A DNA stretch of 64,000 nt from Perna viridis (lineage: Eukaryota), in assembly GCA_037379345.1 (NCBI GenBank), contig CM074519.1, positions 32,018,103 through 32,082,102 on the forward strand, read 5' to 3'. Below are positions 6,409 to 29,257 of this stretch, piece after piece. Both the position numbers and the translations under genes were made by a program. The notes beneath the pieces were generated by a model. That model was not told the DNA's origin and made no database searches. It was given only the letters and a program-made list of their open reading frames with translations. Within the stretch, counting starts at the first letter, position 1. The number at the start of each line of letters is the position of its first letter.

Positions 6409-8276
6409 CCATTAGCAAAATGGAGGTAGTGATTTAATTATCAAGAAAGTACAATTTTCATGATATGATTGGTATATCGGTTTAAGTGTCCATTTTGATT
6501 CTAGACAAAATTCATCTTGTGAAATTCATTTGCAAAGCAAGCAAAACATTCTATGAAACTAATGGAATATAGGTCAGCATATTCTCTCAGAGGGAGTTTA
6601 ATAGACCTATATAAATGAATGTCATTATATCATGAAGATAGATTTCTTAAATTTCAGGTACTTTCACATTATTGGAACTTGCATTACTTGAGCAATGGTA
6701 TGATATGTGGTAAGGAGTTCTGTAGAATATTTCCTATGACTTAAGGGTGGCTGTGCCATCCAGTAATTTATGGTGTTGAATTTCTCATATGGAAATCCAT
6801 GTAGATGGCTTTTGAAAGTTATTTTGAACTTTTTGAAGCGAGTCGTTTAGTGTTCCTGACTAGCAGTTAATTGAAGCTTACTTACTTGTAAATTGACAAA
6901 GCCAACTTTGTGGCAGGATAGAATCAGGAATGAAATACAAGGAGAACGAAAAAGTAAACAAATAAGCACTGGTATCGTGTGTGAAACTGATGGAGAAAGA
7001 TGTTATTAAAATTTATATGCAAATATTTGTTTTCAATTACTGTACATGAAGATAAAGAATACATAGTTTTAAATATTGTCCAAAGAGATTCTAGCTACAT
7101 TTACAACTGGTAAAGATTTTTGGTTTGGAGAATTGCTTTTCTTCTGTTTAAACTTACTATAGACAATTCCAAACATTATTTGTTGAAGTTTAAACTGAAG
7201 CAAGCTTACAATAAGTAAGTATTTTAGGTACCCCTAAACATTGATGATTAAATCATTGCATGTATCTAACATTTGGCGTCTAAAGTGAAATAAAAAATAA
7301 AATAACACCATCAAATGGCAAGATAGAAATTGTAAAAAATAATTAACCTAAAATCACAATCAACTAACATACTTCACAATAAGAGAGTACAGAACACCTG
7401 CACCACAAGTGCTTTCATTCTCTCCTTTTCATGCATATGAATGAGATAGTTACTTCAATTGCAGTACAGGGTCTGTCAGGAAAAAAAATGGGATGGAATT
7501 CTGATTTTGAAAATATTTAAACTTAATTGCTGTGAAGATAGTAAGTCTTGACCTTTGACTTCTTTAGAATGATAAGTTAAAACCTGATTTAAGTAGCACT
7601 CCAGATGAGAGTCATGCAAAATGTTTTTCATGGTTGCAAAGCCTACATATTTTTATTTTTGATATTTTGTTTAAAATGTTATAGTAAACAGAAATTAACA
7701 TGTGGCTTTTCATATAATCCTCCTTGTTCTAAGGATATAAAAATATATAGAATGTACTGCATACTTGCCAACATATAAATGATGAAAACCCTGACAATAT
7801 TGGTGAGGGGTCTGGGGACCGAAAATAGTATTGTGACATCATAATTTACGATCAATTTAACACTTACGACTTCTTGTGAATTTGACGCCTGTTATTGGGA
7901 GACACTAAATATTTTATTATTTTTTTTAACAATTTAAGTCTTTGTAAGTGCTGTGTATATATTACATGTAGTTTGTCTGTAACAATGATAGATATTAATT
8001 TGAACTGTTAGACTTCTTGCATTTTCAAGGGGTGGAGAAATTAGCTTAGTATAGAATAGAAATAGAATAGACTTTTTTTGTTTTTCCTAATTACAGGTCC
8101 CATAAAAAACATATAAATCAAGTGCAATGATTGATGTAATTAAGTAAACAGTAACACATTACACAGTAGTATTTATGTATCATTATATAAACGTAAGCCT
8201 CATGTAGTCAGAATCAGAACCATAAAAACCACATAGGTATCAAATAACAGTATCAAAACATGTTCTTAGGTTTAAA

Positions 8277-8790
8277 GCCCCGTGCAGGTCCGGGTGTTGA
8301 AAGAATAGGCCTGCAGCAACGCTAAGCTTGTCGTATAAGGCGACTAAATAGTGCTCAGAAACCTAGCCGGGGGCTAGGCGCTCTGCCCACAGAGCAACTG
8401 GGATGTGTGCCCCAGGTGGTGGAATGGGGTACCCCTGGCATGTTACATGCTGGGGTTGTCAGGCTATAATACGGAAAACCTGACCGCAAACCATATTGGT
8501 GCACCGTGTTGGGAAAGATGCCACGTTCCTCGCACGTTAAAGAACCCTGCTGTGGTATTCGATAGGAGTAGGAACCTTTGCGCTCCGCCACAGGAGGCTA
8601 AATTGCCCGACCTTACCCACCCCCCTTTTTCCAGTGGCAATCGGAGTTTGTCGACCCTATTGTCCTTGTGTCCCATCTTTTTTTTTCTTTTCATTTCATG
8701 TCCATTTTATCATCCATTTCATGTTCATCGTCTGAATATAGCTGAAATATTGCTGCTCGGACGTTAAACCCCCAACAAACAAACAAACAA
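8277..8790 (+). mobile_element. ~515-bp non-autonomous retroposon (SINE-like), copy 1
   Basis: Closely similar along its length to 25113-25629. Has a (CAAA)n tail and a 13-bp TSD (TCTTAGGTTTAAA 8264-8276 / TCTTAGGTTGAAA 8791-8803). Internal GCACGTTAAAGAACCC..GAGTAGG resembles the MetaSINE central domain; the 3' end ATATAGCTGAAATATTGCTG..GGACGTTAAAC resembles mollusc SINE tails. Confidence 0.9.
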
Positions 8791-9194
8791 TCTTAGGTTG
8801 AAATAACTACTAATAAATAATTTACCGATTTTCTCCATAATAGACAAGTTTTCTACATTCAATCGATTTCACCTCGGGTACTTTAATTTGTCGAATGGTT
8901 TTAGTGTCTGAATGGTGTTCGTAGAGGAGCACTCAAATAAATACAAATGTTCGGTTTTCTATGATGGACATAGACGTATTCAAGTAAGCATTTTTGTTTT
9001 CAAATACCTTCGAATATGTAGATTACAGATGTTTTGTGTCAAAACATGCATATAGTTGTCCTGTAAACTTGTAGTATTTTGATAATAGGTGAGAGCTGAT
9101 CAATACACATACTCAATATAGAACAGGTTGTCTAAAACACTAAAATATGACTCGTGTTATAACTAGCATAAAATAGATATCCTTAATATAGGTT

Positions 9195-9984: not shown

Positions 9985-10212
9985 TTCGGTGTTTCTAGAA
10001 AAGCAGAGGACGCTTACCCTACCGGTGCACCTGGTCCATGCTCCCAGTTTTAGTGGAGTCCGAGTTGCTCATTTACTTTTGTTACTTTGTATGTATTATT
10101 TTAGTTACTTTATGTACTTTGTCGTGTTTGTCTTTTTTCCATGTCTGGTCTTTGCCCCTGGATTACATTCTTTTGATTTCCACTAGAATCTTGGTTCCCT
10201 GGATTACTGCTT
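9985..10212 (+). repeat. Dispersed ~230-bp repeat (retroelement 3'-end-like). Relatives at ~16275-16470 (+), ~18245-18450 (-), ~22060-22082 (-), ~25630-25700, ~32690-32810 and possibly ~63840-63940
   Basis: Shared GCTTACCCTACCGGTGCACCTGGTCCATG..CCAGTTTTAGTGGAGTCCG..TTGCTC and/or GGATTACATTCTTTTGATT..CTTGGTTCCC..GATTAC blocks across copies. Confidence 0.75.
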
Positions 10213-11255
10213 TTCAAACATTATTGAAGTACTAAGATTATTTATGACAGATATTGGGTAAGACGTATGATGTATGTAATGTGTTCTGTATTTTATATTT
10301 TTATTTTCTCGTGTGCAGAGTGGTCATTTCAAAACAAGAAGAACGGAAAATGTTATTTGTTTCAAATTTCATTAAAGCAAAATCCCGGTCTCTTTGTTAT
10401 TACACTTGTACATGTATGTATATCTAAAAATACCCTAAATATCTTTTCAAGAAAGGCATTTTCCTTCTCTAAAAATTTCTCGCTATGATAATAACTTTCG
10501 CAAACGGTTGCAATGACTTAGTAGAAAAGTGGCCGATGAGCGAGTGCCGTACCCGCCAGCATAGCTGATGACGTGGTGGTCACACATGTAGTTGTAATAC
10601 CGTAATATAAATTTCGAATATTTGTCAAAAGAATGACAAAAGTTTGCGGTGAAGTGATAACCCGCTATCATAACTGTCAAAAATGTGCAACCACATCGTC
10701 ATTGTAATTTTCTTCTAAATGCTTCTTATTAAAATATATTTTTGCTCCGATATAGACGAATTATACAATTGCCTAACCACAATCAAAATTGAAACAACGC
10801 ACTATACACAAAAAGACACTTTATCATTTGCAAAAATATAAACAAATGCATAAATATGTCAAAAAAATTCCACGAATTATATCATATGAAATGCATTTGA
10901 CAGGTGAATATGTACACTCTAAAATATTTTAATCCCAACCAGCGAAATCTACATGCATGGAAAGAACTGTTATCTTTAGTAAACTGTTTACTGTATATTC
11001 TGGCACGAACTTCAAACGCATTATAAACCTTTCTTTAAAAAGGTATGCAACGTGTCCTTCGTAGGGTTTTAACCCGCTAAGACGGATTTATTTTCGCTTT
11101 TAATCAATGGGAGGTTTTGTATCATAATCCTTTTTGTTTTTAATTAGTAAACAAAGATTGATCCTGTAGTAAATATTACCATGTTTGAAAAACAAACATT
11201 TTAATTGATCGAAATAGTGTGAGGGGGAATGTGGAGAAAGACATAAGTTGTTGTA

Positions 11256-13726: not shown

Positions 13727-15988
13727 CAACACCGGTCGTTGTTATTTAATCCCTCTCTGGTATTTCACAGAATATTTTCAGTTATCTTTGTCATGGAAAG
13801 CTAAGCAAAAGGTCATCATTTTACAAATCGGCTTGGCGTTTTGTCTAAAATAACGAAAAGGTATATCATAAACGTTAAACAAAAAGGAAATGAGGTTGCT
13901 TGCTCATAGTTTGTATTATTTTCAAGGAACATCACAATCATGCTCAAAATTTGTTTCCATGTATTACAGAGTATGAAGCAACCATATGATTTTGATAAAA
14001 AGGTGCTTATTACTCCCATTCATACCGACAAGAGGACCACTTCATAAAACGTTTCAAAATAAAAGACATTCAGAAGTAGCTACACTTATGAACCATCTTT
14101 CGAACATTATAGGCAAGCTACTTTGACTGTAAAAGCAATAAAATAGTAAAATGAAGTTTTTGTTTGTTTTGTTTATGTGATGTGTAAACTTTTACTTCTG
14201 ACCTGTATTTTTTTGAAAGGGCCAATGTAACTCGTTGAAGTCATGTATGATTGCTAACATACATTTTTTATTATCATACTTTCTTTTGTGTTTCTCTTTT
14301 GCTGATCATAACCTAAATCATATAACATGTATAAACGTCTACCAATTATTTACACATTTATCCAAACATAATTCATGTGTCTTTTTGGGTTCTTATATAC
14401 AAACAAATCAATCTTGGAGAGGAGGAAGACCTTTAATTATTTATCGGTCTTTAAAATATGTTATAAAACACATGAAAAAAATATTTTGCAATAGTCTTGT
14501 GTAATGTACAATGATACTACTATCTTTAACTGGTGCAGAACTGTGGAAAATGAATAATAGGACTTCAATCTCCTATTATATAAATAATGAAAATGTGCAT
14601 TTAACGGTTTATTCACATATTCCGAACATAATTCATGTCTTTTTAGGTTCTTATATACACACAAATTTGCTCAGTCTTGGAGAGGAGGAAAACGTAGTTG
14701 TTAGTTTAAAAAAAAAATGAAATAGCGTTAGGGATAATAGTGAAAATATCTAAAATGTTGAAACTTGAGCAAAGGTTTCCCTTCGTACAACATTCAGACA
14801 CTTCAAATTTAGTCTCGTTGACTTTGACAACATTGATTTATAATGGATATATAGATTGTAAATGTTGGTATATAACCGGTGTTGAGATTCATCTTAATTT
14901 GTTGAACGATTTTCATGTATTGGAAAGTGGAGAATGATGAGTAACCAAATTTCGTAAACGATATCTCAACTGAATATAACAAATCGCACAACTTCGGTTT
15001 TGGGTCTCAACAACCTAACTATAATCAAGATTTTGATATAAAAAATTATCAATATCATTGCTTAATCGATTAGAACGTTAATATGTTTTCTGGCGTTGTG
15101 GATTTCACAAATCATGTTGTTTAACGCATACATCATTACTAAGTTTTACACCGGTTTAAGACAATTGACTTGTATATTCGTCTATTTTCACACTTCTGCT
15201 ATAAAAGTCTTTCCGTCGATCATGAAATAGATATTCAACTTTTCAGCGGCGGTAATCTGGTTGAAAGATGATATATCGTCAAAATACAAAGCCATAATAG
15301 ACATAAGAGGGAAGTAATTATTCTTTTCTCATATATGGTACTCTTAACGTTGTGTAACACGTGTTATGCTGTCTATATTACATGTGTATATTTGTTGAAT
15401 ACAAAAAAAATCAATCATATATCAAAGAATATATTGCAAATTACTGAAATTATAAGGAATAAGGCGAACGGAGTCAATTCACTTTTCTTGCTACTAGACT
15501 ACAAGTTAGCTCTTAAAATCCTTTATCTTTGGAACAATAAAAGTCGTATTCGATAAATTAAGGTAATGACATGGCGTCTTGGTAGAAAGGTCTATGTCAT
15601 CACTCCACAGTAGTTTAGTTTCGCATTTTTGGCTAGGGGTGAAACATGACATAAATGGAAACCGTTGGTTGCTATAGTGATTAAAAATGAAGAATCTATT
15701 GTTGATAAAACATTTTCTGTAAAAATGAGACTTTTAAAAGTATTTTGCAATGTTTTATATATTTTCAACGTTGAAAGGGCTTTTTTCAATGACAATTTGA
15801 CTTCATTGTGAATGTGAAAGTAAGTAAATTTTTAACCATGCTAAATTTGATAAGTGGATTACAAAGTCAAATAGATCAAAATCTAACCGGCGATGCCCAT
15901 ATGAGGATGGGGTTTTCGAAGGAGAAAGTTTGGGCAGATTCAGGGGATGAAATAAAAATTTAAGATGTTTTGCGGAAAATTTGATATT

Positions 15989-18758
15989 TTGAAAATGTCT
16001 ACGATTTACAGGATTTGCCTTTACGCCTATACGCAAATTTAAAAAAAATGCTCCGTGCATTTTTTTCTATATTAAAAACGGTAATAGTATCTAAAGTTTA
16101 ATAATTTGATTTCAGATATAGCACGCTTTCTGATTGGATACAGAAATTGTCCATCATCTTATATACCAAATGTTGTTTTGTGACAAAAAATGAATGATAA
16201 GGAAAGACTGTATATATTATTTCGGTCTGTTTGAAATAATCTCAAATTCATTCAATTTTTGTAGTCATTCCTTGCCCCAACGATGCACCTGGTCCATCCT
16301 CATAGTTTTTAGTGGAATCCGTGTTGCTCATTGGCTTGTGTTACTTTTTATGTATTATTTAGGTGCTTTATGTTCTTTGTTGTGTTTGTCTGTTTTTCAT
16401 GCCTGGTGTTTGTTCTTGGATTACATTCTTTTGATTTACGCGTGAATCTTGGTTCCCTTGATTACGTTTAAAGAAACCTTTTCGATTTCTGAGATTTTTT
16501 AAATGAAAATGACAAAAATAGCGGAAATTAATTTTACAAAGGAATTTAACTGAAGAGTCTGACTGAATTTGTTTCGATGTGAATAATTTTTAAAGTTCGA
16601 TTTTATTTCTCACACTGATTGATTTAAACTGTTACCAAACTAAACTTATTAATTCGTGTTCCAACGTTGGTTTCCTACCATTTTAGCCAATTATCATTGA
16701 CCTTTTGATAATGTGCACATGTTAATTCTAGTGGGATTTCTGTCAGCTTTTTAGATAGGTATCGATATGTAGAACACTCGTAAAGATATTCATACTCATC
16801 TATTGATATATAAATGTGCTCTGTATATAAATAATATGTTATATTAAAATATAATCAACGTATTCGAAAACAACGTTATTGTATTGTAATGCATTAGTAC
16901 TAGGTGTGCTTTCCTATTTCAATACTCTTGACCTCATCTAGTTCGTGTATACAATTTACATTTATATTTAAGTCATTCGATCGATTTATTTGGTTCTAGT
17001 GCTGCTGCTGATATGTAACTAACTGAATACATAGTACAGCATGCCAAAATTTGCAATTTTATTTAGTATTATTGTATTTATAGAAAGTCACAGATAGACA
17101 TATTATAATGAGTAGATCTAGATCTGTGTTTTGGGTACTGAATTAAAAACATGTTCTGAAAATAAGAACAATATTAGAGAAGCCTGTGTTGGTTAACATA
17201 TGTCACAATGCACTACGTAATTACACATTTGTTTTTTTTTAAGAATTCCAAGGGTCATTCTAAATATTATATTAATCTTAACTTCGGGGTAGTATCAAAA
17301 ACTGAATTCATTCGACAGGAACGGGACGAGTTAACATGATATCAATAGCAATCCAGATGCAATTTCGCTGTTTACAGGCATTCGCCAATTTTCAAGCTCA
17401 TTATTCAGGCAAACTGTATGCTGCTATATGTTTGGTACCAGACGGATGAAAATGCATTCTTAGGGACATTAATCTTATAGTTAACAATGAACAGCATGAC
17501 CGACAAATTGAATTATAGACCAATTTTAACTCATTATTTATATTAACACAGGCTTCTCAAAAATATTGTTCTTTTCAGAATATTTTTTTAAATTCAGTAT
17601 CCAAAACACAGATCTACACAAAATAATATGTTATATACGACTTTCTATAAATACAATGATACTAAAAAGAATATTGCAAATTTTGGCATGCTGTACTATG
17701 TGCTCAGTTAGTTACATAACAGGAGCAGCATGACTTAAATTAAAATGTAAATTGTATACAAGAATTAGATGAGGTCAAAAATATCGAAATAGGAAACCAC
17801 ACATTATATTACAATACAATAAATAAAAAGTTTTTTTTTCGAATACGCTGATTTTATTTTAATATAATGTATTATTTATATACAGAGCACATTTATATAT
17901 CAATAGGTAAGCATAAATATCTTTACAAGTGTTCTACATATCGATACCTATCTAAAAAGCTGACAAAAATCCCACTAGAATTAACATGTGCACATTATCA
18001 AAGGTCAATGATAATTGGCTAATTTGATAGGAAACCAATGTTGGAAACGAATTTATAAGTTGTTTAGTTAATGTTTGGTAACAGTTTAAACCAATCAGTA
18101 AACGTGAGAAAAATAAAATCGAAATTTCAAACTTTAAAAATAAATTTAGTCAGACTCTTCAATAAAATTGCTTTGTAAAATTGATTTCCGCCATTTTTGT
18201 CACTTTCATTTCGTTAAAAAATCTCAGAAATCGAAAATGTATTCTTAAGAGGAATCAAGCGAAACAAGATTCCAGCGTAAATCAAATGAATGTAATTCAG
18301 GAACAAAGACCAGACATGGAAAACAGACAAACACAACAAAGAACATAAAACACCTAAAACAATACATACTAAGTAACACGAGCCAATGAGCAACACGGAC
18401 TGCACTAAAAACTGGGGTCATGGACCAGGTGCATCGTTGGGGTAAGGAATGACAACAAAAATTTAATGAATTTGAGGTTATTTCAAATAGACTGAAACAA
18501 TATAGCAGTCTTTCCTTGTCATTCAATTTTTGTATCAAAATTCAACTAATAAAGGTTGACGACGTCAGTCACATAACAAATTTGATATATAAGATGATGG
18601 ACAATTTTTGTATCCAAAAAGAAAGCGCGCTACATGTGAAAGCAATTTATTAGACTTTAGATACTATTATCGTTTTTGATATAGAAAAAAATTCACGGAG
18701 CATTTTTTTTTGCGTACAGGCGTAAAGGCAAATCCTATAAATCGTAAACATTTTCAAA
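15989..18758. repeat. Large diverged inverted repeat: arms ~15989-17197 and ~17542-18758, spacer ~345 bp
   Basis: For example GGATTTGCCTTTACGCCT (~16011) pairs with AGGCGTAAAGGCAAATCC (~18718), and GAGAAGCCTGTGTT (~17177) with AACACAGGCTTCTC (~17545). An additional outer match links ~15568-15598 and ~19057-19086. Confidence 0.9.
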
Positions 18759-19099: not shown

Positions 19100-22000
19100 A
19101 TTTGGTCTTTTTTGCAAATGTAGACAAATAATGGCGGCCAAGTTAAAATGTTTTAAACTTATCCATAAATTTAACATAAAAGGGTGTACCCTGCTCTAAG
19201 ATTATTCTAATTAAAACAAACTAAGTTTTGTATAATAAAATTGATAGGGCCTATATTTCTTCATGAATGTATCTTAACAGATGCACGTGTGGAGTAAATC
19301 AGAAGTTTATACCAGAAGCGGTCTTTTAACAGAAATTAATAAATTGAGAAGTAAAATTTCTGTACACGTGATATTAGAATAATTGATCCACTTTTCTTTA
19401 GTCCTTTTGTCTGTGAACCACAGCTGATACTGATTTAAAAAAAAAGTTTTTATGATAAACCGATATAAACAGGTAGATCAAATTTCATTTTTATACGTCT
19501 TTCGCGCATTATTTCGGCTTAGATAATTTGTCTTTTTCGGGCAAAGCCACTTTTTGACATACATTGGAAGATGCAACATATAAACCAAGAATAACATGTT
19601 GTGACAGAGGGATTAAGAACTTAAATATAATTAAAGATGAGAAACCATTAATTGTGATTACAGTAAAATGCATTGAATATGTTTAAATTTAAAGTAAAGT
19701 TTCAAAAATATTACTACTAGGTTATCATTTTTGTTAAGGAATGTTTCTTAATTTTGAAATAGCTTTTGCAGAAAGTCGGGCTTTAATCAACACCCTTTCA
19801 GAAAGTCGCTCATTGATTATTCTTAGGGACGTACGTTATTATACTGTCTTCATCGTCTTTTTGTCCTTCAGTTTTTGTATTTTTGTTTATGACTCTAGTC
19901 TCTACTTTCATTCTACTTCGTTCACAATTCCATACTAGTAATTAATTGCCGAGACGATTAAAAGTGTCCGGTTCTGGTTATCTAAAGAGGAAAATATATA
20001 TTTCATCCATGTTCCGATCGACGGAAAACGTTCGAAACGTTCAAAAAGTAAACATTGAATAAATCGTCCTCTTAAATATATTAAATAAAGTAAACAGTGA
20101 TCACAATTAATGGTTTATCTTGTTTCATGTTTTTTCAATCATTAATCCTTTTGTCATAACATGAAAAGCTTGGTTTGTTTGTTGCATCACCAAATATATA
20201 TCAAAAATTGGCTTCGCTCGAAAACATTATCTAAGCCGAAATAATATGAGAAAGACGTATACAGGTGAAATTTGATCTAAAGTGCAAGCAATTTTTTCAG
20301 TAGATTTCAAACCTGTTAATATCATATAAGTACATTTTTTATTCAGTATCAGCTGTGGTTCACACACAATAGGACTAAACACATGTGGACCAATAATTCT
20401 AATTTCACGTGTTCAGGGATTGTTACTTCTCAATTAATCTTAATGCTGTGACTATTTATCCATGAGTTTACGCCACACATATAAAGAAATAAATACTAGT
20501 GATCGACTGTTGCCTTCTCGACGTGATCTTACGGTTAATCTGCAATATTTGTTGACGTCACTTTCTTCAAACGTTTTTATTTGTTGCCTGTGACGTCACG
20601 CACGCTATTGCGACCGCGTTGAAATAAAACACCTATCTGAACTGCAAATGACTATTGTAAAACAATTACAATTGTGAATATGTGAAAGCTGTATGTGAAT
20701 GCTGTATACTGTTGGAATCAGGACAGAATGATCCTTCTAATATTTTATAAGCATTGAAACTTTAAAATTTAAATGAAAAAAAAAATTCCACTATACACCC
20801 GGAACTTGCTGAACCTTTACCTGAATATGCCTCAAGTGTACATGTAATAAGGTGTTTGAAACTTTTTTTATTTTTTATAGCTGTGGCTAAGTTACATTGT
20901 AAAAGCTGTAAAACATTGATTTTATTTCCTTTCAAGAAAATATGGTGAATGAAACTAACAATTTTCATCCCCCAAACACAGTCGCGCGATCCTCGCGATC
21001 GAAGCAATCCCCCGTTTATCATTTGGACGAAGTGTGTTCAGTGTAGGTAAGAGTTAATTAATATTCATATTCAAGGTTATATTCCACGCTGTGGTGCACA
21101 TGCATGTGCACATTTCATATAGCAATGATTATCAGATTAATTATTCTTTTCGATTTTCTAAAAAATGTTTAAGCTGTTTCAAATAATTTAAAATATAAAC
21201 CTACCAATCATATAATTATTGCTTATTTCGCTATACTGAATACACGTTTCAAGGATCGAGCATACATATAATTCCCCTTTAACGCAGAAACGAAAAGTGT
21301 TGCCAACATTGAGAGATAAATTGTCGAATTCCGACGTTACCGTACATGTTGCAATAGCGTGTGTAACGTCTGTGTCATGGGAAATGAAAATTTTAACAAT
21401 TTCTCTTGTATTTTACATTGAACTGTTTAATGACTATCATTATTCTACAATAATTGTTATTTGATTTGTAATGTGTGTAGCAAAACTTATGATTAGTTGG
21501 ATGTAACAATTAAATTAAAAGCAATGTTTATAATATTGAACTGATTATACGAAATAATCTTTATTATCAAATAAACTAAATAACAACCAATGGTCAATTC
21601 TTTTTCCCATGACCTTTGACACACAATGATGATTTTGGTCTATCTGATTTTTGTCATATCTTCCAATACCTGTCGAATATTGGCCCAAAAATGAAACATT
21701 AACTAAGTCGAAATAATGCACGGAAGACGTATACAGGTGAAGTTTTATCATGTCGGCATTTTTTCTTTAGATTTTAAACCTGTCTATATCGGTTTCTCTT
21801 ATGTATTTTTTTAAAATCATTATCAGCCGTGGTCAACATAAGATAGAACTAAGAAAAAAAGGGACAAAATAATTCTAATTACACTTGAATAAAAATTTCT
21901 ACTTCTAATTTAATCTTAATGCTATGACTCTCTAGGCACGAGTTATTTTAATGGACCGCTCCTAAGATAAACTTCGGACTTACTCCACACATCTTTTAAG

Positions 22001-23730
22001 ATAAATCCATAAAGGAATAGGCGTTCTGAATTTTACTCCTCGAAAGAGTAATCAGTGGACTAGGTGCACCGGTAGGGTAACCGGTATCAAAAGCTTAATT
22101 TGATTTAATTAGAATAATCTTAGAACAGGCTACACCCTTTTGTATTAAATTTTGATATAAATTGACAAGATTTAAAACTTGAACGTATTTGTCTATATTC
22201 GCAGTAAAGACCCATGCAGTATTATAAGGACAAAGTCCCCCCCCCCCACCGCATTACTTCTGTCTAATGATATTTGGAATAGAAATGAATGTTAATGATC
22301 GACTGCTGCCTTACGGTAATCTTCAATATTTGCAATAAAAAATCATACATTATTATAAGGTTAAAGATTTCCCCCACATTGCGCAAGTATAATAATATAA
22401 CACATTAAACTGCTGCCTTCTCGCCATGATCTTACGGTTCATCTGCAACATTTGTTGATGTCGCTTTCTTCAAATGTTTTTTGTTCCTTGTGTCATGAGA
22501 AATTTGGGAAATTTCATAACTAGATTGGATATTGAGCATGTTTCCGAATTGGGTTCATTAAAAAAATATCTGGCCTGTTTTTCCATATGTACAATTTTAT
22601 TAAACTTGATTATAATGTAATTCTTGTATTTTGCTTTCAACTGTTTAATGATTTTCACTATTCTGCAATTATTATCTTAATTCAATTTGATTTGTATAAT
22701 GAAACAAGTTTTCTGATTGGTTGATTTTCTTAAACTGCATAACCTGACTCCGTATTGTGGTGTCATTTAGATATTTAAAATTAAATTATAAGCAATGTTT
22801 ATAATTTTGAACAAATTATACGAAATAACATGGTCAAAATGAAGAAACATTCCTTAACAAAATGATAACCTAGTAGTAATATTTTTGAAATTTTATTTTA
22901 AATTTGAATATATTAAATGAATTTAACTGTGATCACAACTAATGGTTTATCTTCTTCAATTCTATTTAAGTTCTTAACCCTTCTGTCACAACATGTTATT
23001 CTTGGTTTATTTGTTGCATCTCCCAATATATGTCAAAAAGTGGCTTCGCCCGAATGAGAAAAAAATAACTAAGCCGAAATAATGCGCGAAAGACGTATGA
23101 AAATGAAAATTGATCTATCGTGCAGGCAATTTTTTTCAACAGATTTCAAACTTGTTTATATCCGTTTATCATGAAAACATTTTTTAAAATCAGTATCAGC
23201 TGTGGTTCACAGACAATATGACTAAAGAAAAGTGGATCAATTATTCTAATATCACGTGTACAGAAATTGTTACTTCTCAATTCATTAATATCCGTTAAAA
23301 GACCGCTTCTGGTATAAATTTCTGATATACTCCACACGTGCATCTGTTATAGGCCTTATCAATTTTATTATACAAAACTTAGTTTGTTTTAATTAGAATA
23401 ATCTTAGAACAGGGTACACCCTTTTATATTAAATTTAGATATAAGTTGAAAACATTTAAAATTTGACTGCCATTATTTGTCTACATTCGCAATAAAGACC
23501 CATACATTATTACAAATTTAAAGTTTTTCCCCCGCATTACTCCTGTATAACAACATAACACATTAAACTACAGCATTCTTGCCATGATTTTACGATTCAT
23601 CTGCAATATTTGTTGATGTCGCTATTTTTTTTTTGCCTGTCTTATGAGAAATTATGGAAATTTCATAACTGGATCGGATACTGAACAAGTTTCCGTATTT
23701 GGTCCATTAGATAAATATCTTGTCTGTCTT
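19100..23730. repeat. ~1.1-1.15-kb unit in about three diverged tandem copies (~20090-23730) plus one inverted partial copy (~19100-19749, matching 22841-23502)
   Basis: The landmark CTGCAATATTTGTTGA recurs at ~20540, ~22443 and ~23600. TAAGCCGAAATAAT..AAGACGTAT recurs at ~20232, ~21704 and ~23069, and inverted at ~19493-19521. Confidence 0.85.
20593..21369. mobile_element. ~780-bp non-autonomous DNA transposon (MITE-like) inserted in one tandem unit
   Basis: 22-bp imperfect TIRs ACGTCACGCACGCTATTGCGAC / GTTGCAATAGCGTGTGTAACGT, with CTGTG duplicated on both sides. Sibling units at ~22490 and ~23640 show the empty site. Confidence 0.75.
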
Positions 23731-23736
23731 TTGGAA

Positions 23737-25090: not shown

Positions 25091-25112
25091 AACCACGCCT
25101 TTTCTGGTCTTT

Positions 25113-25629
25113 GACCCCGTGCAGGTCCGGGTGTGAAAAGAATAGGCCTGCAGCAGCGCTAAGCTTGTCGTACAAGGCGACTAAATAGTGCTCAGAAACC
25201 TAGCCGGGGGCTAGGCGCTCTGCCCACAGAGCAACTAGGATGTGTGCCCCAGGTGGTGGAATGGGGTACCCCTGGCTTGTTCCATGCTGGGGTTGTCAGG
25301 CTATAATACGGAAAACCTGACCGCAAACCATAGTGGTGCACCGTGTTGGGAAAGATGCCACGTTCCTCGCACGTTAAAGAACCCTGCTGTGGTATTCTCC
25401 CGGAGTAGGAACCATAGGGCTCCGCCACAGGAGGCTAAAATGCGCGACCTTACCCATCCCCCCTTTTTCGAGTGGCAATCAAAATTTGTGGGCCCTATTA
25501 TCCTTGTGACCCATCCTTTTTTTTTTCTCATTTCATGTTCATTTTATCATCCATTTCATGTTCATTGTCTGAATATAGCTGAAATATTGCTGCTCGGACG
25601 TTAAACCCCAACAAACAAACAAACAAAAT
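25113..25629 (+). mobile_element. ~515-bp non-autonomous retroposon (SINE-like), copy 2
   Basis: Same 5' start and (CAAA)n tail as 8277-8790. Perfect 13-bp TSD TTTCTGGTCTTTG (25100-25112 / 25630-25642). Inserted into a copy of the dispersed 230-bp repeat. Confidence 0.92.
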
Positions 25630-26009
25630 TTTCTGGTCTTTGTCCCTGGATCACATTCTTTTGATTACCGCTATAAACTTGGTTCCCTTGATTACTTTCT
25701 TAGAGGATCAAAAGAATACACATCTGAGGCCATGTCAACGAAGCTTTATTGGGAATAGGACGTGTCTTAAGATGGTCTTAGGACATATCTTTTTCCCAAG
25801 TAATGTCAACAAAAGTCTCCTAACTTAAGATACGTCATAAAATTTGCCATTAAATTAGAATACCCCGATAGGTAACGTAAGATGATCTTAGGATACGCCT
25901 AAAACTTAAGATAAACTTAAACTGTCATAAATTGAAAGAAAAGCAACAAACATGGCCGCTGTATTTGTACATCTCAGACATGTTTTTAGAGATAGAGATA
26001 ACCCATTAG

Positions 26010-26874: not shown

Positions 26875-27600
26875 ATTGAGTATATTCCCGGATACTATTG
26901 AACTAGACACATGATACGATACTATTATTAAAGATTATAATCAAGCATTTGTTTACTTCCTCCAGATAAAAAAAATCTATACCACAAAGAATGCATGGCA
27001 AAGACAACTATTAACAAGAAATAGCAAGCAACGAAGACTTTTGTAAGCTCTTTTATAAACCACGAGTAAAGGAGAAAATTGATATCCCATTCAGTAAGGA
27101 AATCTACCACCATTTTCCTTTCAAATAAAAAAAAATGCTTTTGATATTAGGAAATGTCTAATATTTCTTCAACAATTATAAGTATACAAATCTCATCTTT
27201 GAGTCTTTATTCAAAAATGGAGCAATAAAGTCTGTATTCATTTTATCAACTAAGTGTAATTTCCCTTTGTATAGAAAAAGAAATTTTAACGTTGGACATG
27301 AAAAGAGATATTTAAAGGTTTTGTAAGTGATAGTCCTATTTTGTTTTGATTGTCCATTGAAGCATACAGAAATTTAAAATTTTACATTCTATACATATGT
27401 AATAAATTCATTGAAGAGTCATCTCGTGTATGTTTACTTATTAATGTTTTACAACGGTTATAATACTTCGTGTATAGGACGATGTTGAAGAGTACCACAT
27501 AAAGCTCTGTCGAAAGGTAAGAAACAGTATAATATGTAATGTAAGTAAGGGTTTTTTTTGCATTGGTTGTTTGTACATGTAAATCTGTTGTAAAAGTTAA

Positions 27601-27663
27601 CAAACATTACACAACATGACAAACATTACACAACATGACTAACATTACACAACATGACTAACA
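27601..27663. repeat. 20-bp tandem repeat x3
   Basis: (C/T)AACATTACACAACATGAC repeated. Confidence 0.9.
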
Positions 27664-27677
27664 AGTCTTATTGTTTG

Positions 27678-28990
27678 AATGATATGTGTGTCAGTCCTTC
27701 CGTTCATCGATGGTTACCAATGATTTGTGTGTCAGTCCTTCCGTTCATCGATGGTTACTAATGATTTGTGTGTCAGTCCTTCCGTTCATCGATGGTTACT
27801 AATGATATGTGTGTCAGTCCTTCCGTTCATCGATGGTTACCAATGATTTGTGTGTCAGTCCTTCCGTTCATCGATGGTTACCAATGATTTGTATGCAATT
27901 CATTCTGTTCATCGATTGTTACCAATGATTTGTGTGTTAGTCCTTCCGTTCATCGATGGTTACTAATGATTTGTATGCAATTCATTCTGTTCATCGATTG
28001 TTACCAACGATTTGTGTGTAATTCCTTCCGTTTATCGATGGTTACCAATGATTTGTGTGTTAGTCCTTCCGTTCATAGATGGTTACCAATGATTTGTGTG
28101 TTAGTCCTTCCGTTCATCGATGATTCCTAATGATTTGTATGCAATTCATTCTGTTCATCGATTGTTACCAATGATTTGTGTGTTAGTCCTTCCGTTCATC
28201 GATGGTTACTAATGATTTGTATGCAATTCATTCTGTTCATCGATTGTTACCAATGATTTGTGTGTAATTCCTTCCGTTTATCGATGGTTACCAATGATAT
28301 GTGTGTAATTCCTTCCGTTCATGGATGGTTACCAATGATTTGTGTGTTAGTCCTTCCGTTCATCGATGGTTACCAATGATTTGTGTGTAATTCATTCTGT
28401 TCATCGATTGTTACCAATGATGTGTGTGTAATTCCTTCCGTTCATAGATGGTTACCAATGATTTGCGTGTTAGTCCTTCCGTTTATCGATGGTTACCAAT
28501 GATATGTGTGTAATTCCTTCCGTTCATAGATGGTTACCAATGATTTGTGTGTAATTCCTTCCGTTCATAGATAGTTACCAATGATTTGTGTGTTAGTCCT
28601 TCCGTTCATCGATGGTTACTAATGATTTGTGTGTAACTCCTTCCGTTCATGGATGGTTACCAATGATTTGTGTGTAATTCCTTCCGTTCATAGATGGTTA
28701 CCAATGATTTGTGTGTAATTCCTTCCGTTCATCGATGGTTACCAATAATTTGTGTGTTAGTCCTTCCGTTCATCGATGGTTACCAATGATTTGTGTGTTA
28801 GTCCTTCCGTTCATCGATGGTTACCAATGATTTGTGTGTTAGTCCTTCCGTTCATTGATGGTTACCAATAATTTGTGTATGCGTCTTTCCGTTTATCGAT
28901 GGTTACCAATGATTTGTGTGTTAGTCCTTCCGTTCATCGATGGTTACCAATGATTTGTGTGCTAGTCCTTCCGTTCATCGATGGTTACCA
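27678..28990. repeat. 41-bp minisatellite, ~32 copies, several unit variants
   Basis: Consensus AATGATTTGTGTGTTAGTCCTTCCGTTCATCGATGGTTACC with exact 41-bp periodicity (27678, 27719, 27760...) and no spacers. Confidence 0.97.
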
Positions 28991-29257
28991 TTACATGTAT
29001 ATATGTTAAACTTTAATATGTCTATGTTACATTTTAGTTGGAGATGCAAGTCTGGCGTAATTATCTTGATTATTATACATATTTTAAAAAGAGGTGGGTT
29101 CCAGAATAAAAGGGGGAGGCCCAAGGTATCATTTGTTTATTTAAGACATTTGTGTGCGTGAAATTAACTAAACCCCACCCAAAAAAAAAAAAATTAAAAA
29201 AAGGGGAGTCCAACCCCTGGAATCTTCCCTGCTCGATCCGCCTATGTAAAACAGTAT

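Follow-up and report, generated by a model that had tools for sequence, protein, structure and literature searches.

The LP-type SINE and its copies

Two full-length copies of one SINE family lie on the forward strand of the 64,000-nucleotide stretch of Perna viridis DNA that we analysed (hereafter the window), each bounded by a target-site duplication (TSD). The features of the two insertions are as follows:

8264..8276, +: left TSD of copy 1, 13 bp
8277..8790, +: full-length LP-type SINE, copy 1, 514 bp, of a family with roughly 10,000 copies
8503..8556, +: short Nin/Deu-domain-like core of the SINE body, matched by eye to Nin and BivaMD/Tgr_1 sequences in the supplements available
8715..8790, +: Nimb/I-type 3' tail ending in (CAAA)n, resembling the tails of the LINE in L278 and of a host LINE (both described below)
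8791..8803, +: right TSD of copy 1, pairing with 8264-8276 with one mismatch
25114..25628, +: full-length SINE copy 2, with a 14-bp TSD (25100-25113 / 25629-25642)

The copies are 94% identical, and all the motifs named in a preliminary description of this DNA sit where it had placed them. That description had both copies beginning alike, at 8277 and 25113. The fixed start and the TSDs stand, but copy 2 begins with the A at 25114, since the G at 25113 belongs to its TSD.

To the family's abundance attest 9,506 exact matches of a 15-mer from the head in the host genome (G000; reversed control, 0) and 10,144 matches of a pattern for the hairpin P4 described below (control, 0). Positions 1-3 of the element were the start of 73 of 139 BLAST pieces, with at most 2 starts at any other position, in a sample of 20 stretches of host contig C1, picked for density, together with the window. 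Among 55 TSD-bearing copies, drawn from 74 with both head and tail and biased towards full length in that about half were chosen by a head query, the TSD ended exactly before position 1 in 37, reached 1-4 nt into the element in 16 and stopped upstream in 2. The overlaps of 1-4 nt are due to chance or to our allowing one mismatch.

Consistent with the non-tRNA head proposed earlier, no tRNA gene was found, and no Pol III A or B box in the head, and Rfam returned no match for the window, including none at E<=10. A MetaSINE-like body had also been proposed. Tested against a definition of a tRNA head followed by a 66-bp Meta domain, membership was rejected: the head is not tRNA-derived, and the body by eye contains no Meta/MESC sequence and has the Nin/Deu-like core instead, for which sequences in the available material of PMC4758252 and PMC4824008 served as comparison.

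In the available material of Matetovici et al. (2016; PMC4758252), LP ('LINE promoter') SINEs are those that open with ~70 bp matching the 5' ends of Nimb-17_LMi, I-3_DR and RTE-9_CPB; the head is a presumed promoter there, and the promoter-plus-ribozyme precedent of ingi/L1Tc is mentioned. The window head aligns by eye to the 'Nimb-17 homology' block of scallop copies in supplementary Fig. S2 of that paper, the block through which we know its likeness to Nimb-17_LMi. A Nimb-17-homologous head, the lack of a tRNA head, direct TSDs and 3' short tandem repeats were all found here, and the TSDs, short-repeat tail and partial Nin core recall Sgl_LP as presented in the same source. Judged by sequence, then, the window SINE head is the already described LP head, and the novelty that the preliminary description had allowed for, unless the head proved to be that of a described SINE, falls away. 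The window family differs from published LP-SINEs in its 514-bp length and its own body, and the text of PMC4758252, as far as it was available, gives neither an RNA structure nor viral relatives for the LP head.

Several other repeats were observed. Positions 15988-18758 and 19140-23731 are nested long inverted repeats of MITE/foldback-like character, with dispersed copies near 10048-10227 and 25632-25696, and SINE copy 2 is inserted within one such inverted repeat. A 41-bp tandem satellite of ~32 or more units occupies 27555-29100. Elsewhere in the host genome, contig C1 carries at 3335000-3520000 (L031-L047) a dense SINE cluster with ~125 aligned pieces in the 170 kb sampled, many mutually nested, which could mark a preferred site of insertion or a region resembling a piRNA cluster.

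Predicted fold of the head and the element boundary

Comparison of heads across families predicts a conserved RNA unit of ~80 nt. Its parts in copy 1 are these:

8277..8355, +: LP head, structured RNA motif of two tandem pseudoknots and a hairpin, predicted from cross-family covariation
8279..8294, +: P1 hairpin, 8279-8282 with 8291-8294; its loop holds an unpaired U (8283) and the PK1 5' strand (8284-8290)
8295..8307, +: linker of variable length (3 to about 140 nt in other families), with the conserved AGAATA at its end (8302-8307)
8308..8314, +: PK1 3' strand, 7 bp with 8284-8290; 7 of 7 pairs change on both sides
8315..8328, +: P3 hairpin, 8315-8317 with 8326-8328; its loop contains the PK2 5' strand
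8330..8347, +: P4 hairpin (8330-8344) and TAA, nearly invariant in sequence
8349..8355, +: PK2 3' strand, 5 bp in copy 1 and 7 bp in copy 2
8362..8395, +: two family-specific hairpins, 8362-8378 and 8380-8395

The order of the model is thus P1-U-PK1-P1'-linker-AGAAUA-PK1'-P3(PK2)-UG-P4-UAA-PK2'. The preliminary description had paired the loop of a CCCG-tgcaggtc-CGGG hairpin with downstream sequence, and covariation supports this pseudoknot, our PK1. Its fold was incomplete in that it missed the second pseudoknot. The three downstream hairpins that it listed all exist, but those at 8362-8378 and 8380-8395 fall outside the cross-family motif; the first of them gains an extra C-G pair in a subfamily, with both changes in 19 of 94 copies and neither in 63.

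The covariation that had been called for was found across families, in PK1, P3 and PK2. In an unbiased column scan of a MAFFT alignment of 15 chosen representatives, PK1 was the only long variable helix, and 92% of its cells were paired, against 79% in shuffles (0 of 500 reached the observed value) and 34-56% in slid controls. When 23 representatives from retroposon families and viruses were compared, none of 10000 cross-row permutations matched the observed pairing for PK1, P3 or PK2, counts that are not probabilities because the rows were hand-picked and some are related. P1 shows one-sided changes only, and about 5 of the 23 (e.g. L065 and L081) have a weak PK2 or none. P4 contains a G-C to C-G swap of a base pair in four loci, its near-invariance being partly a product of the search pattern. 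The linker expands to about 60 and 140 nt with both PK1 strands retained, and an apparent loss of P1/PK1 in some families was rejected in favour of such long linkers. The scallop copies of Fig. S2 (PMC4758252), as available, also fit P1, PK1, P3, P4 and PK2, and by eye keep PK1 through a C-G to A-T change. Covariation among 151 host heads was set aside as structural evidence, being mostly neutral decay, and the folding energy is unremarkable (z -0.4 to -1.7, from a program unable to form pseudoknots).

In four SINE families conservation sets in abruptly, at a purine located 6 nt upstream of the loop U and about 2 nt upstream of P1. The majority share is 0.68-0.91 at -6 versus 0.32-0.50 at -7 (host family, n=75; three metagenome families, n=44, 18 and 11); a fifth group, which probably overlaps family 1, was left uncounted. 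The preliminary description had proposed an unclassified RNA that sets the 5' end. A structured RNA that probably defines the 5' end is what we find, albeit in a head already described for LP-SINEs.

Three raw RNA runs, from one study and with the same organism label, contain transcripts of the family; reads of the presumed sense strand outnumber those of the other roughly 2- to 5-fold, strand being assumed from the usual library convention. The ratio of presumed-sense depth at 8279-82 to that at 8303-06 was 0.60, 0.29 and 0.51, and that of the other strand 0.77, 0.79 and 0.81, a difference suggesting that part of the sense RNAs start within the head or close to it; promoter, cut and trim are not told apart by depth. 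No accumulation of molecule starts was listed in the RNA read mapping, and many of the reads extend into the flanks. A single dominant locus, as may be the case in run X23, or stalling of the RT could also account for the rise in depth. At the other end of the element, many RNA reads switch at 8728 from unrelated sequence into the tail, and coverage is doubled over 8722-8773, as would be expected from numerous 5'-truncated copies or from other elements with the same tail.

LINEs, viruses and apparent bacterial copies

An autonomous LINE with this head had been suggested as something to look for, and L278 carries one: an intact APE-RT-RNaseH LINE with the motif about 620 nt upstream of ORF1. 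No TSD was seen for it. This complete eukaryotic LINE (L278:7907-14040) sits in a scaffold from the assembly of a bacterial symbiont. In L114 (minus strand), the sequence after the head resembles an RTE 5' UTR, which agrees with movement of the head between LINE clades.

Neither a LINE with the LP head nor a second head family was found in the host genome. What the host does contain is a young, intact 6.1-kb LINE with copies up to 99.7% identical, a SINE-related tail and a (CAAT)n end, located at L309:1501-7580 (contig C8, about 23537700-23543780) and also at L308 and L310-L315. Its likeness to L278 suggests a clade of Nimb/I type, and it plausibly mobilises the SINE. Its head differs from the LP head, has a run of six C and has an equally precise start. 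By eye this head has an HDV-like nested pairing layout, and Rfam gave no match for the LINE 5' end; we regard it as a candidate for a second 5'-end RNA.

A metagenome scan gave at least 122 matches, mostly from several retroposon families. Searching with the P4 string alone, we recovered nine viral contigs, seven of which also have P1, PK1 and AGAATA upstream, none of these being part of the query. A covariance model built from 18 non-viral heads scored 8 of 38 viral loci at 30-58 bits (E<=2.7e-6), these eight being seven distinct sequences, and the others at 21 bits or less. Two further viral scans produced no new full motif, 28 of 36 loci from another scan were chance matches, and Rfam returned no match for the nine viral loci at E<=1.

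All six distinct RNA-virus-like contigs carry the motif in coding-strand orientation, downstream of their last long ORF. Pfam assigned RdRP_3 to L081, L082 and L087, with capsid domains also in L081 and L082, RdRP_4 to L071 and an A21 capsid to L065, and gave no hit in L060. Tandem partial copies of the motif occur in L060 and L082, the second copy in L082 being weak (E 0.17). A 212-kb DNA virus contig carries the motif at L068:2980-3056, within an AT-rich intergenic leader; a long ORF of over 940 aa, which has no Pfam hit, follows about 200 nt downstream. The location of the motif on the sense strand of RNA-virus 3' UTRs indicates that it acts as RNA and not only as DNA, and covariation together with the RNA-virus copies indicates that selection acts on the RNA fold.

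Matches in prokaryote genomes also scored well (5 of 7 at E<=5.9e-7). Nonetheless, a bacterial distribution was rejected, as these matches are best read as eukaryotic contamination. In L263 the head is followed by simple repeats, and L264 has a contig end before repetitive sequence. G004 and G005 hold 10 and 3 motif copies, several of them in low-GC stretches nearly without long ORFs, and host-DNA contamination is likely in G001, G002, G004 and G005.

We found no description of the structure or of viral copies of the head in the text of the open-access literature searched. The P4 string is absent from the open-access papers searched, from the supplements of PMC5786205 and from the searched supplement files of PMC4824008, and the motif is not described in the available parts of PMC6401454, PMC10085705 and PMC11203168.

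A putative exoribonuclease roadblock and its alternatives

We put at about even the chance that the ~80-nt head, with its two predicted tandem pseudoknots, works as an exoribonuclease-resistant RNA (xrRNA) that sets and protects the 5' end of the element. SINE copies would be co-transcribed from flanking host promoters, or their transcripts would be uncapped. Trimming by a 5'-to-3' exonuclease (Xrn1/Xrn2) would then proceed until about 2 nt before P1, where the enzyme would stall, and a Nimb-type LINE would use the shared tail to reverse-transcribe the RNA that is left. Viral copies of the fold would leave protected 3' fragments. We favour a roadblock because it fits the element start, the viral 3' UTR position with tandem copies and the gene leader at least cost.

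As described in the available parts of PMC6299227, class 3 xrRNAs stop the enzyme at the base of P1, and the LP head likewise has a conserved pseudoknot near a 5' boundary that lies at the base of P1. With the class 3 xrRNAs of Tombusviridae/Solemoviridae (PMC6299227 and PMC12397905, as available) and the flaviviral class 1/2 xrRNAs (PMC8374639, likewise) the head shares a compact pseudoknot, a position in the viral 3' UTR or leader, tandem copies, known from flaviviral xrRNAs and seen here in L060 and L082, and tombus-like hosts. Membership of these classes was rejected on structure. The three-way junction of class 1/2 is absent, as the covarying helices give two tandem H-type pseudoknots (compared with PMC8374639), and so is the stacked P1/P2 stem-loop of class 3, with L1/L2B and a pseudoknot from its apical loop to the 3' end (compared with PMC6299227 and PMC12397905). 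The head thus differs from known xrRNAs in consisting, as modelled, of two tandem H-type pseudoknots at retrotransposon 5' ends, with putative resistance; by its predicted structure it is outside xrRNA classes 1-3, and the likeness we propose is one of function.

Several points count against a roadblock. The head departs in layout from the known xrRNA classes and has no match in Rfam, and near-invariance of the kind seen in AGAAUA and P4 would be no less expected of a catalytic core or of a protein site. A ribozyme or an internal promoter would likewise place the 5' end at a constant offset, and the purine at +1 is compatible with initiation by a polymerase. No accumulation of starts is listed for the RNA reads, many of which extend into the flanks. 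The viral support amounts to only seven distinct sequences. Finally, the active Nimb-type LINE of the host has another head with an equally precise start, and no host LINE with the LP head was found.

The strongest competitor, which we nevertheless consider unlikely, is self-cleavage: the head would be a ribozyme of a class not yet described, with its cleavage site immediately 5' of position 1. HDV-like ribozymes cut at the 5' ends of R2, RTE and ingi/L1Tc elements. They have in common with the head a 5'-terminal pseudoknot, a precise start and portability between LINE clades, and they differ from it in their nested P3/L3/P1.1 core: the head contains no L3-like motif, has no HDV-type match in Rfam, and with an 8-nt P1 loop, 7 nt of which form PK1, leaves no room for HDV P3/L3. 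The earlier view that the head is not an HDV, twister or pistol ribozyme holds. Hammerhead, twister, pistol, hatchet and hairpin ribozymes were rejected, with no Rfam match for the window or the nine viral loci and no CUGANGA in the head, and by eye the head lacks pistol P2 and the hairpin-ribozyme helices flanking AGAA/GUC. The single fixed offset in four families and the invariant unpaired bases with two pseudoknots are what a ribozyme could produce, although no known catalytic core is present. According to the available parts of the respective sources, six LINE clades have 5' ribozymes (PMC5786205) and linear RNA viruses, tombus-like ones among them, can carry ribozymes in their UTRs (PMC13725137). 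The latter reports mostly 5' UTRs, however, whereas the viral copies here are in 3' UTRs; cutting a linear viral genome at the motif would sever its 3' end, and the viral contigs continue unbroken through the supposed cleavage site. Apparent copies in bacteria, which would have spoken for catalysis without protein, are best read as eukaryotic DNA.

It is more doubtful still that the role of the fold is to bind a host factor or the ribosome, as an enhancer of the 3' CITE or IRES kind of translation or stability, and that the 5' end is set otherwise. The positions of the motif upstream of ORF1 in L278, in the 3' UTRs of tombus-like viruses and before the long ORF of the DNA virus contig would accord with such binding, as would the conserved loop sequence of P4, but it leaves unexplained why the start is fixed at the base of P1 and why non-coding SINEs of many hosts keep the motif as their head. 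Least probable, and improbable in itself, is the reading of Matetovici et al. (2016) as an internal DNA promoter to which the RNA fold is incidental: the position at +1 with a purine start and the sense-biased reads that thin towards the 5' end suit it, but it does not account for compensatory changes in three helices, for the motif in RNA viruses without a DNA stage or for a spacing of the two halves that varies by more than 100 nt. Factor binding and a DNA-only promoter fit less well than a roadblock or a ribozyme. Internal promoters are nonetheless known in I-group LINEs, a precedent for the promoter reading, and by analogy with the 77-bp end of L1Tc/ingi the head may have a dual role as promoter and RNA.

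Beyond the choice of mechanism, we think it somewhat more probable than not that the head represents a new structural class of 5'-end-defining RNA, either the first xrRNA of cellular retrotransposons or a new class of self-cleaving ribozyme, and that it has passed, as a module of ~80 nt, between LINEs, SINEs, RNA viruses and a large DNA virus, allowing SINEs to spread without a Pol III promoter. The presumed 'LINE promoter' thereby becomes an RNA mechanism open to test. If the head is an xrRNA, host exonucleases would mature retroposon RNA, the exact 5' end of non-tRNA SINEs would be explained, and a fold would be added to a class known, in the available parts of the literature covered, from viruses only; if it is a ribozyme, it would form a new class. 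Either way, the module is common to animal retroposons and RNA viruses.
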